A stretch of 59,891 nt of DNA, taken from the IMG/VR virus record IMGVR_UViG_3300006111_000001; one strand, given 5' to 3'. Shown piece after piece: positions 41,461-51,375 of the stretch. Each line of letters begins with the position of its first letter. Position 1 is the stretch's first letter. Under the pieces are notes generated by a model. That model ran no database searches. It was not told the origin of the DNA and worked only from the letters and a program-made list of their open reading frames with translations. The position numbers were made by a program, and so were the translations under genes. Origin of the DNA: a virus.

Positions 41461-42063
41461 TCAATCGCCAGTTAAATCGGAAAATACAGGTCCATCACTT
41501 TGTGACCCGTTCGAATGCACCAATGGCCGATCCGATTCAGCGCGGATGCCGTCAAAATCAGCCCGCGCTTGTAAAATGCGATCCGCCAATTGCGCATGTT
41601 CTTTCTGTAAATCATCCAATTCCCCTCGGATTCGTAGCATTGCCGTGTCGCCACAAGCTGGTTCAAACACAAACGCCACAAACCGATACCCAAATAAGCC
41701 GCTTAACCGCGAAATATGCTTTCCGCTTGGGTACTTGCCCTCAAGCCATTCCCGAACGGTGCGCTCATCACTATCAACCGCTCTCGCCACCTCTTTCACG
41801 GTATTGCGCGGATAGGCTTGGCGCAGCCAGAACGCCACGCGCGATCCCATTTCAGGAACGGCATCAACGCACGGCATTTTTTTGGTAACTTTCACTGTGT
41901 ATTTGCTCATCGTTCCCTCGCATTTTAATGATGCAAGGACGGGAGCCAGATTGATGATTGAACGGGAATTGGAGCGTGACGACCTTGGCCGGAATGACAC
42001 GCTCGACAATTGGGTAAAACTTGATATGGCGACAGGACTGGCCTTGATCGTCATTGGCTGCAA
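41461..42063 (-). CDS. Hypothetical early protein (possible regulator)
   Basis: 200-aa track ORF; likely starts at the internal MSKYTVKVTKKMPCVD…; contains a …DERTVREWLEG… HTH-like stretch. Confidence 0.35.
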   Translation of the reverse strand: MQPMTIKASPVAISSFTQLSSVSFRPRSSRSNSRSIINLAPVLASLKCEGTMSKYTVKVTKKMPCVDAVPEMGSRVAFWLRQAYPRNTVKEVARAVDSDERTVREWLEGKYPSGKHISRLSGLFGYRFVAFVFEPACGDTAMLRIRGELDDLQKEHAQLADRILQARADFDGIRAESDRPLVHSNGSQSDGPVFSDLTGD

Positions 42064-42125
42064 ACTTATTAACCGGTCGGATCATCCCCAACCGATTGGC
42101 GAACAAGTTGCGGCCAATGACTGAT

Positions 42126-42374
42126 CTAGCCAGCATTACGCACCTCATCATTTTGAGATTGCGGCAATGGCACCAAAAAAATGTCTGGCCTTAATTCGCA
42201 CCGGGAAATACCGGTTGCCCTTTCAATGGCCAACGCATTTTCGGCTGAAATCTTGGTTGAACGATTAACCCATGCCCAAATGGACGGCTGTTTGACCCCA
42301 ATGGCGCGGGCCAAGGCGTTTTGTCCACCGGCAATCTCTAATGCGCGTTGCAGCGCGGTTATAGGCGTGTTCAT
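42126..42374 (-). CDS. Cro-like HTH regulator
   Basis: Divergent from the CI-like gene. Track ORF begins at TTG 42410; the ATG at 42374 (MNTPITALQRALEIAGGQNALARAIGVKQPSIWAWVNRS…) is the more likely start. Confidence 0.55.
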   Translation of the reverse strand: MNTPITALQRALEIAGGQNALARAIGVKQPSIWAWVNRSTKISAENALAIERATGISRCELRPDIFLVPLPQSQNDEVRNAG

Positions 42375-42457
42375 AGGTTTGTCTATATAGGCAAACCAAA
42401 GCCGCGTCAATAGTGGATGCTATTGGAAAAATGAGTTTTTTTAATTAATGTGCGGAC
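42375..42457. promoter_or_regulatory. Divergent cI/cro-like switch region with operator-like palindromes
   Basis: Near-perfect palindrome GGTTTGtcTATATAggCAAACC (42375..42398) abutting the cro-like ATG; inverted repeat CAATAG-N6-CTATTG (42408..42425); candidate -35/-10 hexamers on both strands. Confidence 0.45.
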
Positions 42458-43120
42458 ATGGAAACTTTAGGTAAACGAGTGCGCGCCCGTCGCGCTGATT
42501 TAAAATTGTCTCAAGCGGAACTTGCCAGCCGCGTGGGCATATCTCAGCCGTCTTTATCAGCCATTGAAAATGACGAGACTCAAGGCACCACCAAAATATT
42601 AAAGCTGGCAGAAGTATTGGAATGTGACCCCAATTGGCTTTTGATGGGCAATAAACTAAAGTTTAGCGTCCCCAACAAACTTACAACTTATAAAAATAAT
42701 CCTGTTGCAAACGAATCAGTTTTTACTACCATCAATATGGGCAAAAGAGACTTACCTATTAGAGGTCTGGCTCAAGGGGGTGATGGGGTGCTAACATTTG
42801 ACCAAGACGCAATAGATTATACTTTTCGTCCATCTAATTTAGTCGGCATAGATGAAGCGTTTGCGCTTTATGTTACCGGCGACTCCATGGGCGAAGTCTT
42901 GATCCCAGGCACTTTGTTATTGGTTCACCCCAAACAAGAACCAAAAATTATGGATTTTGTCGTTATTGAAAAAATTGACCGATCCGTAATCGTTAAACGA
43001 TTGGTTCGCAGATCGGCCAATAGCGTCACCTTGCGCGAATACGACCCGCCCAATGATTTTGTGCTTTCTCGCAGCGAAATTCGAATGATGTTGCGGGTTT
43101 GCGGGACGGCCATGGAATGA
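42458..43120 (+). CDS. CI-like repressor (HTH_XRE plus S24 LexA-like peptidase domain)
   Basis: 220 aa; N-terminal …LKLSQAELASRVGISQPSLSAIENDET… HTH; C-terminal …FALYVTGDSMGEVLIPGTLLLVHP…VIVKRL… with Ser and Lys catalytic-dyad context. Confidence 0.8.
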   Translation: METLGKRVRARRADLKLSQAELASRVGISQPSLSAIENDETQGTTKILKLAEVLECDPNWLLMGNKLKFSVPNKLTTYKNNPVANESVFTTINMGKRDLPIRGLAQGGDGVLTFDQDAIDYTFRPSNLVGIDEAFALYVTGDSMGEVLIPGTLLLVHPKQEPKIMDFVVIEKIDRSVIVKRLVRRSANSVTLREYDPPNDFVLSRSEIRMMLRVCGTAME

Positions 43121-43443: not shown

Positions 43444-43522
43444 TTTGACGCCGGGCAAATTTTTGCAAATTTTCTCCATGCCCAAAATTATCGGTATTTC
43501 TATATTGCAATAAATTTGCCTA

Positions 43523-43551
43523 TTGACCGTAAATATAGTTTGTCCTATAAA
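43523..43551 (+). promoter_or_regulatory. Candidate sigma70-type promoter of the rightward early operon
   Basis: TTGACC (43523..43528), 17-nt spacer, TATAAA (43546..43551); preceded by palindromic GCAAA..TTTGC sites and followed by paired GC-rich hairpins. Confidence 0.4.
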
Positions 43552-43650
43552 TATTTCCGTCACCGGATGCACCCCCGGTGAAGCAGCGGCCCCGGTACAA
43601 ACCCTCCTGCATCGAGCCGGGGCCGCTGACCACCACAAGGGAGATTTGAT

Positions 43651-43848
43651 ATGGCCCGCCTAACGTCAGAAATTGAGGTTAAATCTTGGGAAGTGTTCCA
43701 AACTAACTCCACCATTATGCTTACTGGTTACGACAACGCGGGCAGCGATGTTGTTACCGTCTACGCCACTGACAAAGAATTGGTTGCCTTGCGCGATGTG
43801 TTAATCGCTCGCTATCCGGTAATCACCGAAATTCGGGTTGCCGCATAA
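43651..43848 (+). CDS. Hypothetical protein
   Basis: 65 aa; strong RBS (AAGGGAG) upstream. Confidence 0.4.
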   Translation: MARLTSEIEVKSWEVFQTNSTIMLTGYDNAGSDVVTVYATDKELVALRDVLIARYPVITEIRVAA

Positions 43849-44174
43849 TGCGCTACGAAACCCTATTCACGCTTAAAAGCGATGACATTGAAATCGAATA
43901 CGAAATCAATGTTGATTACGAGCATAATGAAGCATACGGCGGCGGTTGGTCAGAACCCCGCGTGCCGGAGCATTGCGACATTATCAGAGTTACCGGCAGA
44001 GCATATCTGCAAGGCGGCAGAAACCCGATCATGGGCCAACCGTTTGATTTTATGCCCCTACTGTCAGCAAGCGCACTTCAAAGCCTAGCGGACGCTTGTT
44101 TAAACGATCACAACGGCATGATTGCGGACGCCATGGAAATGCGCGCTCTGGAACGCCGTGATGCAGCGGAGTAA
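43848..44174 (+). CDS. Hypothetical protein
   Basis: 108 aa; ATG overlaps upstream stop. Confidence 0.4.
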
Positions 44175-44179
44175 TTACT

Positions 44180-44740
44180 ATGCTATTCACAATCCCTTTC
44201 CGTTCATGGACTGGCAAAGCCGCATTTGAGGTCGAGATCGCCGACGATGTTGAACCGCGCTTTCAAATGCGCGCTGCCTTGTCGGTTGTGATCGGCAAAG
44301 CCAAAGAAAAGGGCGAACGTGCCAATCTCAGCCGTGCCGATCTCAGCGGTGCCGATCTCAGCGGTGCCTATCTCAGCGGTGCCGATCTCAGCGGTGCCTA
44401 TCTCAGCGGTGCCAATCTCAGCGGTGCCGATCTCAGCGGTGCCGATCTCAGCGGTGCCTATCTCAGCGGTGCCGATCTCAGCGGTGCCTATCTCAGCCGT
44501 GCTAAAGGTGCATTTTCGCTTGGAACGCCGGATGGTTGGTCGGCTGTTGCTTGGCTGCGCGACGGTTTCTTATCGATCCGCGTCGGTTGCCGAGATAAGC
44601 GGTTAGATGAAGCCCGCGCATATTGGGCCAATAAAAATGACCGGTGCGAAGTTATGGCGGCGCTGGATTACGCTGAAATAATTGCGCGCCTTCGTGGTTG
44701 GGCCATTGAAGCACCGGCTGAACAAGTGGCAGCGGAGTAA
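44180..44740 (+). CDS. Pentapeptide-repeat protein
   Basis: 186 aa; central run of ~12 consecutive pentapeptides A(D/N/Y)LSG ([25 protein letters not shown]…) flanked by unique N- and C-terminal segments. Confidence 0.75.
44327..44503 (+). repeat. Tandem 15-bp repeat (~11.8 copies) encoding the pentapeptide repeats
   Basis: Near-identical units ctcagcggtgccgat / ctcagcggtgcctat / ctcagcggtgccaat in head-to-tail array. Confidence 0.9.
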
Positions 44741-48882: not shown

Positions 48883-49216
48883 AGGCCCCAACCATGAATG
48901 CCTTGGACACTCACACGATCACAATTAACGTGACGCCACTCGACCTAGCCGCGCTGCATCAATTGTTGGTCGTAAATCACGCTTTGGCCGGTAGCATGGG
49001 TCACGCGGCCCAAAAAGACCTTAAAGCGTTAATTGGCGTCCTTGATGGGCTGATTGTTCAAATCTCAATTGGAATTAATCGATAAGAAAGGCCACTCGCG
49101 TCGATGCCGCCCTTAACCCCGAAACCACCAACGCATAGGGCGGCGAACCGTCGGCGCTTCCAGCACCGAGCCGGGGCGGTGGCCCTATGCACCCCGGCGA
49201 TTAACAAAAGGAGACA

Positions 49217-50023: not shown

Positions 50024-50341
50024 ATGAACTTCCCGCGCCCAATCCCAGCCAACAGGCAAGATGAAATTGAAATTCATCGGCCTTGGGCACGGCTGCCAAA
50101 TTGGCCGCGATTGCTACCAGAACTTTTGGCGGCTGCCTATGTCGGCGGTGTCTCGATCGGTACTTTCCGAACGGAGGTCGAACAAGGCATTTGGCCCCCG
50201 CCAATCCGGCGCGGACGGCGCATATTTTGGGATTTGGGCGACCTTGATAGGGCAGTTGACCGGCTAAAGGGCATTGTATCTGATACTCTTCCTGATCAAC
50301 CTTCGGGCCTCGGGGACATAAATTGGGACAAATCCGCTTGA
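50024..50341 (+). CDS. Excisionase / AlpA-like HTH protein
   Basis: 105 aa; …LLAAAYVGGVSIGTFRTEVEQGIWPPPIRRGRRIFWDLGDLDRAVD… resembles Xis/AlpA DNA-binding domains; immediately upstream of integrase. Confidence 0.5.
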   Translation: MNFPRPIPANRQDEIEIHRPWARLPNWPRLLPELLAAAYVGGVSIGTFRTEVEQGIWPPPIRRGRRIFWDLGDLDRAVDRLKGIVSDTLPDQPSGLGDINWDKSA

Positions 50342-51375
50342 GCCTCAGCGTGCCACGGCTCCATATCGTCGGGGACCGCTTTTATTGGCGCCCCACGGCC
50401 CCTATCCGTGCTTTGGGGTTTTCTTACGAGGCTTTGGGCAAAGACCCCATGAAAGCCGCTGCAAGGGCCAGGGAGCTTAATGAACAGGTCGAGCGGGCCA
50501 AACTAGGGTTGGATGCCAGGACCAAGCGCGGCGACACGGTGGCAGCCCTGATCGACGCCTATCAGTCCTGCCCCCGGTATAAGAGCCGGGCGGAAACCAC
50601 CCGAAAGGGCTATGACCATTTCCTAAAACACATCCGCGCGCTTGCCGGGCATGTCATTGTGGCGACCATTGACCGGCCCGGCATGTTGCAGACCTATGAG
50701 AAGCTAATCGCCGCCAGGGGCCTTTATACCGCCAATGCGTATATGAAGGTCTGGCAGATATTGCTTAAGCACGCCTATGACCTCGGATGGCGCAAAGATA
50801 ACCCCGCCGCCGGGCTTGGGCTTCAAACGCCGCCGCCGCGAGAGCAAGTCTGGACGGTCGATCAAATCCTTGCATTTTGTGATGCCGCCGTGGAAATGGG
50901 CAGGCCGTCCATGCGTCTGGCGATGCTATTGGCCTATGACCTTGGGCAACGCCCTGGCGACTATATCAAGCTGACTTGGACCACTTACACCGGGTCCGGG
51001 TTTATGATTAAGCAGTCCAAGACCAAAACCCGCGTCAATGCGCCGTTCGAAAACCCGTTTCTTTGGGCTGAAATCGACGCCATGCCGCGCAAACACTCGC
51101 ATGTCTTGATTTGTGAGGGGACCAAAGCCCCCTATAAGGCTGATTATTTCCGGCACCTATGCACCAAGATCAGGCGCGCGGCCAAACTGCCGGAACAGCT
51201 TCAATTCCGCGATCTGCGCCGGACAGCCGCCACGGAAATTGGCAATGCCGGGGCAACAGATGATCAGTTACGGGCGCTCCAAGGCTGGAAAACCCGGAAT
51301 CAGGCGGCGACTTATGTGGTGGTATCGTCAGCCGGTGCCGAAGGCGCTCAAGCGAAACGGAGGGCGAACAGGTAA
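50323..51375 (+). CDS. int: Tyrosine integrase
   Basis: 350 aa; N-terminal SAM-like and C-terminal catalytic patterns (…GQRPGDYIKLTW…, …FRDLRRTAATEIGNAG…LQGWKTRNQAATYV…). Confidence 0.8.
   Translation: MGQIRLSLSVPRLHIVGDRFYWRPTAPIRALGFSYEALGKDPMKAAARARELNEQVERAKLGLDARTKRGDTVAALIDAYQSCPRYKSRAETTRKGYDHFLKHIRALAGHVIVATIDRPGMLQTYEKLIAARGLYTANAYMKVWQILLKHAYDLGWRKDNPAAGLGLQTPPPREQVWTVDQILAFCDAAVEMGRPSMRLAMLLAYDLGQRPGDYIKLTWTTYTGSGFMIKQSKTKTRVNAPFENPFLWAEIDAMPRKHSHVLICEGTKAPYKADYFRHLCTKIRRAAKLPEQLQFRDLRRTAATEIGNAGATDDQLRALQGWKTRNQAATYVVVSSAGAEGAQAKRRANR

Follow-up and report, generated by a model that had tools for sequence, protein, structure and literature searches.

What a pair of GC-rich hairpins does between a phage early promoter and the first gene that this promoter would serve is the question raised by positions 43523-43650 of IMGVR_UViG_3300006111_000001, a stretch of viral DNA of 59,891 nucleotides (the window) that represents a temperate phage of about 60 kb known from freshwater metagenomes only. 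An earlier note on this DNA had compared the paired hairpins to the cis-acting antitermination RNAs of the HK022 put type. The observation itself holds up, and related phages conserve the structure. The reading that we tentatively prefer is that of a structured, cis-acting 5′ untranslated leader that may stabilise or process the early-left mRNA.

Direct reading places the promoter candidate where the earlier note had put it, on the plus strand at 43523-43551, with TTGACC (43523-43528) and TATAAA (43546-43551) separated by a 17-nt spacer. The same bases can be read in an alternative register, TTGACC-N16-CTATAA, which fits the TTGAC-N16-CTAT.. motif of the relatives described below, and direct reading and relatives together point to a sigma-70-type promoter of the form TTGACC-N16/17-(C)TATAAA. 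Given the lambda-like gene order of the region, this promoter would be the analogue of lambda PL. Hairpin 1 (TCACCGG-N8-CCGGTGA, 43560-43581, plus strand, from reading and folding) has a 7-bp stem, one pair longer than the 6-bp stem at 43561-43580 described before, and an 8-nt loop of sequence AUGCACCC; it starts 8-9 nt past the −10 box, i.e. at about +1 to +3 of the predicted transcript. Hairpin 2 (43584-43628, plus strand) has the claimed form, CAGCGGCCCCGG-N21-CCGGGGCCGCTG with 12 G-C-rich pairs, to which RNAfold adds an inner U.G pair that extends the stem and leaves a C-rich loop of 19-21 nt. Together the two hairpins occupy 69 nt (43560-43628). They are followed on the same strand by an unstructured A/C-rich linker, ACCACCACAA, with the Shine-Dalgarno (SD) sequence GGGAG at 43639-43643 and a 7-nt spacer (43629-43650 in all), and the ATG of the first gene lies at 43651. 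Reading of the window found no T-tract after hairpin 2 on either strand, in agreement with the claim that the hairpins lack a U-tract and end ahead of the first ribosome-binding site.

RNA folding, which had been proposed as a check, gave a structure stronger than chance: the leader of 98-101 nt reaches −42 to −44 kcal/mol (z = −3.1 to −3.75 relative to dinucleotide-shuffled sequences). When 90-nt windows over 41.0-50.4 kb were ranked by z-score on both strands, the leader came third of about 630, and the entire 59.9 kb contains no perfect 12-bp stem other than that of hairpin 2. Some minimum free energy (MFE) folds contain a long-range helix in which the extreme 5′ end would sequester the SD (GGGAG); it was rejected because it needs nucleotides that are probably upstream of the start site.

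Relatives were retrieved with the 108-aa and 65-aa proteins of the operon as anchors, and comprise three diverged lineages (L005, L006/L007 and L261-L263) in which the 65-aa protein is only 51-55% identical to that of the window. Their promoter and operator sequences are completely different from those of the window, with TTGACA-N17-TTATAT amid TACGA-type repeats in L007 and GTACAG..CTGTAC repeats at the promoter region of L005. All three lineages keep hairpin 1 at 8-9 nt past the −10 box, a gap of 2-3 nt and hairpin 2, followed by an A-rich or A/C-rich linker of 8-10 nt, GGGAG and ATG, and their own TTGAC-N16/17-CTAT/TTATAT promoter stands at the same distance from hairpin 1 as in the window. 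Both structures are thus kept in place in related genomes, where the earlier note had allowed that a lack of conservation would speak against them. The leaders of this family are each significantly stable (z = −2.9 to −3.6), and the 65-aa and 108-aa genes accompany the leader in every case. Among 13 contigs of the same phage the leader is 100% identical and so carries no microdiversity information; searches of cultured phages with the region (blastn) and with the 108-aa protein (tblastn) gave no match.

Hairpin 1 is kept in position with stems that are unrelated in sequence (UCACCGG, GUCAGU and (U)CGCUG), the shuffle p-values in three lineages being 0.011, 0.004 and 0.12 (combined 5e-4). The stem of hairpin 2 is nearly invariant in the relatives around a loop of 19-21 nt: nine pairs do not vary, and the three that do change on one side only, always from C-G to U-G. 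This stem is conserved in L005, L007, L261 and also L020, a genome outside the family that is described below, with changes solely from C to U, giving G.U pairs. Such changes retain pairing only in the plus-sense RNA, and none of the A.C type was seen. Context and the G.U pattern favour the plus strand as the functional one, and the evidence from the window's own family is conservation with wobble-compatible change, not classical covariation. The loops in this family are about 40% C, with CCUCC-like runs. In L007 and L261 the upstream gene lies on the opposite strand, in divergent orientation, from which it would follow that the leader hairpins do not serve the upstream operon; termination of the upstream cI operon was rejected as a conserved function on this ground.

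When viral, metagenome and genome collections were scanned for the stem pattern of hairpin 2, most matches were GC-rich hairpins of high-GC genomes with no relation to the leader, and L020 was the sole useful one. An identical 12-bp stem is also found in L019 (145-188), by the 3′ end of a tRNA gene at a prophage border, where TTTTT comes after it on the minus strand and makes it an ordinary terminator pointing the other way; the sequence of the stem is thus by itself not diagnostic. A separate conserved leader-like hairpin was seen in the viral contigs L311, L343, L358, L371, L372, L386, L404, L405, L410 and L412, in which CAGCGGCAAGG and CCTTGCCGCTG enclose a loop of 21 to 24 nt and are followed by (T/C)TCAACCAAGGAGG, with a terminator-like hairpin ahead; its outer 7 bp were forced by the search pattern, which bears on any relation to the leader.

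L020 carries the same 12-bp stem in the same type of context and, like the window, encodes GapR. There TTGACA-N16-CTATAG is separated from hairpin 2 by some 30 nt containing a weak hairpin; the loop of hairpin 2 is C/U-rich and 19 nt long, and after this hairpin come ACCAACCGAGAGG and the ATG. A second group of phages, collected via the downstream DUF3310 protein of L020, shares a syntenic module (ThyX-DHFR-x-gap-DUF3310-x-GapR-..-methyltransferase) in nine lineages, among them the cultured Casjensviridae phage S-ESS1. Seven of the nine have the full cassette upstream of the DUF3310 gene, i.e. a TTGAC-N16-CTAT promoter, hairpin 1, hairpin 2, an A/C-rich linker and an SD. Here hairpin 1 has a short stem that starts 9-15 nt past the −10 box, and hairpin 2 is GC-rich, with a stem of 8-15 bp and a loop of 8-23 nt; the loops of this group are not C-rich. 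L427 (1431-1506) and L430/L431 (L430 1110-1206) keep the TTGACC-N16-CTAT promoter and the SD and have neither hairpin; they are natural deletion or non-insertion variants. Covariation, which had been suggested as a further check, was found in hairpin 2 of this second group, with double compensatory changes at five of 18 pairs among L424, S-ESS1 and L432 and, in an imperfect alignment of seven sequences, at nine of 14 consensus pairs. A covariance model built from the second group alone was used to search 84 kb without filters, and its three best matches fall exactly on leaders of the window's family: L005 with 17.5 bits (E = 0.011), L007 with 10.9 bits and the window with 9.0 bits (E = 1.9), the last within the range of noise. 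This is suggestive of a common origin of the leaders in the two phage groups. By the covariance model the element is single-copy both in S-ESS1 and in the window, and a multi-copy element such as the T7 RNase III sites was rejected because S-ESS1 has one copy.

In none of the 11 leaders does a U-tract come after hairpin 2 (tails ACCACCACAA, GUAACAAAU, GUUACAAAAU, ACCAACCGAG and the like), for which reason a canonical intrinsic terminator or attenuator was rejected. The host uses canonical U-tract terminators, to judge by one on the minus strand at 41397-41378 (GCCGGGGCTTTGGCCCTGGC then CTTTTTGG), whose hairpin reads GCCGGGGC-TTTG-GCCCTGGC. It lies in the 100 nt that separate the GapR gene from a 149-aa open reading frame (ORF); within the rightward early operon this is a tR1-like position, so that partial read-through or some antitermination would be expected there. 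On the plus strand no strong canonical terminator was found between 43.6 and 51.4 kb.

Lambda nutL consists of boxA and boxB, the latter a small hairpin with a purine-rich pentaloop; they act with the Arg-rich N protein, whose gene comes directly after the site, and the lambda N leader holds an RNase III site. These elements and the promoter/RNase III pairs of T7 resemble the present leader in that structured RNA stands in an early-left leader or after an internal promoter. A lambda-type nut site was rejected since the loops measure 8 and 19-21 nt, there is no small boxA/boxB-like hairpin and the first ORF is not Arg-rich; its product is acidic, has four Arg in 65 aa and matches no Pfam or PHROG family. 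Compared with classical RNase III sites the stems of the leader are too short and too regular: the T7 type has a coaxial stem of about two helical turns, usually with an internal loop where cleavage occurs, and the leaders have uninterrupted stems of 8-15 bp with loops of 8-23 nt. The E. coli ompA 5′ untranslated region (UTR) is of the type with a 5′-terminal stabiliser stem-loop, which lies at about 0-4 nt from the 5′ end of the transcript and whose loss makes the mRNA shorter-lived. Stabilisers of this kind are similar to the leader in having a stem-loop near the (here predicted) 5′ end, conservation of structure only, as in hairpin 1, and an unpaired ribosome-binding site, but they lack a second, much longer hairpin with a conserved stem sequence.

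At gathering level no Rfam family matched the window. The best plus-strand match by E-value in a local E-value scan was RF02791 CcsR1, with 24.2 bits against a gathering score of 65.3 (local E = 4e-4). CcsR1 belongs to the cuckoo RNA family of alphaproteobacterial small RNAs (sRNAs), which display an CCUCCUCCC (anti-SD) motif in each of their hairpin loops (PMC4615179). The leader shares with these RNAs two adjacent GC-rich hairpins, CCCUCCU in one loop and a host class that is probably alphaproteobacterial, but its motif is only CCCUCCU, in the hairpin 2 loop and in the lineage of the window only, and it is an mRNA leader and not a terminated sRNA. Membership was rejected, the score being far below gathering and L005 and L007 having no CcsR1 match. 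An anti-SD element was likewise rejected, as the energies of duplexes between loop and ribosome-binding site are no better than those of shuffled loops (fraction at least as good 0.13-0.63).

The put RNAs of HK022 (putL and putR, for polymerase utilisation) bind the β′ zinc-binding domain of RNA polymerase and act on terminators that lie further downstream; the comparison with them was made with the putL sequence from NC_002166. PutL comprises two adjacent stem-loops in about 70 nt, pairing beginning at about nucleotide 3 of the PL transcript; the stems, which contain bulges and non-canonical pairs besides a triplex, are irregular and make up the interface with RNA polymerase (PMC9378689). The leader is like putL in its length of 69 nt, its two adjacent stem-loops, its predicted place at the 5′ end of a PL-like transcript and its lack of a U-tract. 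It differs in its regular, very stable and perfect helices of 7 bp and 12-13 bp with large terminal loops, and in its probably alphaproteobacterial, as against enterobacterial, host. There is no similarity to putL in sequence, local alignments of four leaders scoring below the shuffle mean; putL itself is thermodynamically unremarkable (z = −0.46), and the covariance model found no putR-like second copy past the rightward promoter of the window. The put-type reading of the earlier note thus failed the tests of membership at both the sequence and the structure level, and the likeness is limited to anatomy and position.

We return to a leader that may stabilise or process the early-left mRNA. 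Under such a model, the repressor-controlled promoter at 43523-43551 would start the transcript at about 43557-43560, as predicted from the −10 box alone, and its first 70 nt or so would fold co-transcriptionally, hairpin 1 at what would be the very 5′ terminus, with the highly stable hairpin 2 next to it, while the A/C-rich linker would keep the SD and the start codon of the first gene free. 5′-terminal stem-loops bar the entry of RppH/RNase E and of RNase J. Hairpin 1 would thus protect or define the 5′ end of the mRNA by blocking this 5′-end-dependent decay, and hairpin 2 would be a second barrier, or a point of processing or protein recognition, that spares ribosome access. Protection of the 5′ end fits the structure-only conservation of hairpin 1, the variability of hairpin 2 in the second group and the natural losses of the hairpins, two lineages having lost them, which indicates that the element is dispensable. 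Several points weigh against this reading. The 5′-terminal place of hairpin 1 follows from a predicted start site only; the folding energy of the whole leader shows no preference for the plus over the minus strand and is uninformative as to strand; no double compensatory change was found in hairpin 2 of the window's family, which offers only three independent lineages; and the 9.0 bits of the window compare with background matches of up to 9.5 bits in S-ESS1. A stabiliser alone does not explain the near-invariant hairpin 2 stem beside flanking proteins of about 52% identity, nor does a pure stabiliser explain the conserved CACUCACGGA in the hairpin 1 loop of the second group. The near-invariant stem and this conserved loop give a hint that RNA polymerase, an RNase or some other protein may recognise the leader by its sequence.

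Among the other explanations to be weighed against a stabilising or processing leader is a put-like processive antiterminator, in which the two-hairpin RNA would bind polymerase in cis and, without a phage protein, render it insensitive to pauses and terminators over an operon of about 8 kb. Its gross anatomy is that of HK022 putL, the sequence conservation of the hairpin 2 stem is what contact with a conserved host machine would demand, and no N-like Arg-rich protein follows in what is a long operon ending in the integrase gene. We nevertheless consider it quite unlikely: the leaders have no similarity to putL and form perfect helices (z about −3.7) where putL has z = −0.46, the hairpin 2 stem varies from 8 to 15 bp and its loop from 8 to 23 nt, and two lineages of the second group have no hairpins with promoter and SD intact. 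The plus-strand operon, moreover, has no strong canonical terminator to overcome, and no copy of the element follows the rightward promoter, whose operon does have the one strong terminator at 41397-41378. Cleavage by RNase III or RNase E at, or bounded by, hairpin 2 (with or without hairpin 1) would give read-through and promoter-initiated transcripts one common 5′ end; parallels are the pairing of promoters with RNase III sites in T7 and the site for this enzyme in the leader of lambda N. Read-through is to be expected, since in the window and in the second group genes on the same strand directly precede the element and have no canonical terminator, and the element always lies between an internal promoter and the next SD; in L007 and L261, however, the upstream gene is divergent and there is nothing to uncouple, there is one copy per genome, and perfect stems of 8-15 bp with large terminal loops are unlike T7-type RNase III sites, so that a processing site as such has a rather small likelihood.

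We hold it equally unlikely that the leader is an RNA operator or riboregulator whose hairpin 2 stem or C-rich loops would be bound by a protein, be it the 65-aa product or a host factor, or would act as an anti-SD, either on the first gene in cis or, in the manner of the CcsR/cuckoo sRNAs, in trans. Such a role would account for a hairpin 2 stem that is near-invariant amid diverging neighbours, for the constant company of the 65-aa and 108-aa genes in the window's family, and for C-rich loops with CCUCC-like runs and a sub-threshold CcsR1 match; but that match is far under gathering and is absent for L005 and L007, loop-SD complementarity is no better than in shuffles, the loops of the second group are not C-rich, and there is no terminator to release an sRNA. 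It is very improbable, finally, that the repeats act as DNA (a protein-binding palindrome, a cruciform or a hairpin in single-stranded DNA) or are chance GC-rich palindromes. The stem is identical on both strands, with similar folding energy on both, and this 12-bp stem is found as a chance occurrence in many genomes of high GC content and as a minus-strand terminator in L019. Against this stand the fixed place between promoter and SD in 11 leaders from two phage groups, a hairpin 1 that keeps its structure and not its sequence, the compensatory stem changes, and stem substitutions that are all C to U, giving G.U on the plus strand and never A.C.

The earlier note had also described a related pair of hairpins at 49.1 kb. 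This pair does exist, in a second GC-rich intergenic region (49106-49198, plus strand) that precedes a MazG-like gene of the same operon, with stems of 8 bp (49106-49144) and 7 bp (49170-49198) followed by GATTAACAAAAGGAGA and then ATG, but its standing as a related second copy of the leader is unsupported. The 140-nt region folds no better than its shuffles (z = −0.58), and the covariance model scores 7.1 bits on it (E = 5.9), which is noise level. The shared GCCGGGGC core, found five times in the window against 4.8 expected, is not enriched, and it forms the 3′ arm at the leader and the 5′ arm at the 49.1 kb site. A 15-mer, GCAYCGAGCCGGGGC, is common to both loci with one mismatch, which is unusual, 0.23 matches being expected at two mismatches or fewer; it speaks for a relation, as does the noise-level match of the covariance model. 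No equivalent of the hairpins was found in L006, and the more than 20 homologues of the MazG-like gene were all without such hairpins on their upstream side; among contigs of the same phage the site is invariant. The locus is possibly a degenerate partial duplicate of the leader.

Around the promoter, the palindrome GCAAATTTTTGC that had been noted is present at 43455-43466, one base away from its reported place, and the second one (43505-43519) is imperfect; taken as a whole, GCAAA..TTTGC sites are no more frequent in the window than expected. The promoter region is connected with the gap between the cI and cro genes by another half-site, TTTGYC(N)TAT. Two direct copies on the plus strand, at 43515-43523 adjoining the −35 box and at 43539-43548 overlapping the −10 box, are candidate repressor sites and would be the OL analogue, and two inverted TTTGYCTAT half-sites form a 22-bp near-palindrome, GGTTTGTCTATATAGGCAAACC (42378-42399), that is a candidate operator in the cro/cI gap. 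The half-site occurs seven times in the window against 2.4 expected, with four of the seven within these two regulatory gaps. Its presence in both supports a putative common repressor control of the PL-like promoter and the cro/cI gap. Copies of TTTGYC(N)TAT also overlap CTATA(T/A) −10-like boxes, so that similarity between promoters is an alternative cause.

The leader is embedded in a gene order of the lambda type. A cro-like helix-turn-helix gene (42374-42126, minus strand) heads the leftward replication, methylase, GcrA and structural genes, and divergent from it lies a CI-like repressor gene with HTH_3 and Peptidase_S24 domains (42458-43120, plus strand; Pfam and PHROG matches), upstream of the leader. 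Next on the plus strand is a 108-aa ORF, and after it comes the 207-nt gap that contains the promoter and the leader. The first two genes of the operon, of 65 aa and 108 aa (43651-44174, plus strand), belong to no known family and are those co-conserved with the leader; they are followed by genes for a pentapeptide protein, a RecE-like exonuclease, an AAA_24 protein, a single-stranded DNA-binding protein (SSB), further ORFs and, as the last gene of the operon, the integrase (50323-51375, plus strand). The pentapeptide-repeat ORF (44180-44740) contains 15-nt tandem repeats at 44289-44528, and its product has 186 aa in the window and L008 and 156 aa in L010 and L011, the number of repeats differing among otherwise identical contigs. 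The phage encodes GcrA and GapR, which we take to be alphaproteobacterial hallmarks, and its host is probably alphaproteobacterial. For the AAA_24 recombination protein the nearest match is the one encoded by Brucella phage BiPBO1 (40% identity), a phage that has the same layout of cro, repressor, early-left genes and integrase. Between its immunity and early-left genes BiPBO1 (L422 3613-3650, NC_031264) has a canonical terminator, GGCCCCGG-13 nt-CCGGGGCT then TTTTCTTTT, in place of the two-hairpin leader. The best structure of the scan over 41-50 kb is an imperfect inverted repeat of about 80 nt at 42046-42128, GTCATTGGC.GCAA.TT...AA.TTGC.GCCAATGAC, with about 33 pairs, an MFE of −48.7 kcal/mol and z = −5.9 on the minus strand, the plus strand being equally strong; it lies where the cro-like gene ends and the next ORF starts, some 300 nt past the presumed rightward promoter.

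For the biology of these phages the leader is a clean test case, as a well-delimited element of about 70 nt that is kept across different immunity regions, with controls built in by the lookalike in an unrelated phage group and by genomes that are naturally without the hairpins. A put-like, factor-independent role of the leader, in which the RNA would modify host RNA polymerase by anti-pausing or antitermination in phages of Alphaproteobacteria, is improbable. If the leader had this role, an element of the kind would for the first time be seen beyond the HK022-like enterobacterial lambdoids, one with regular helices and a sequence-conserved GC stem, carried in a portable promoter-leader cassette across temperate and lytic GapR-encoding phages, and protein-independent antitermination RNAs would be commoner, and more varied in structure, than the one paradigm of HK022 suggests. 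If the leader instead stabilises or processes the early mRNA, it would be a routine, uncatalogued motif of phage 5′ UTRs without an Rfam family, and its main use would lie in annotating the early promoters of uncultured alphaproteobacterial phages.

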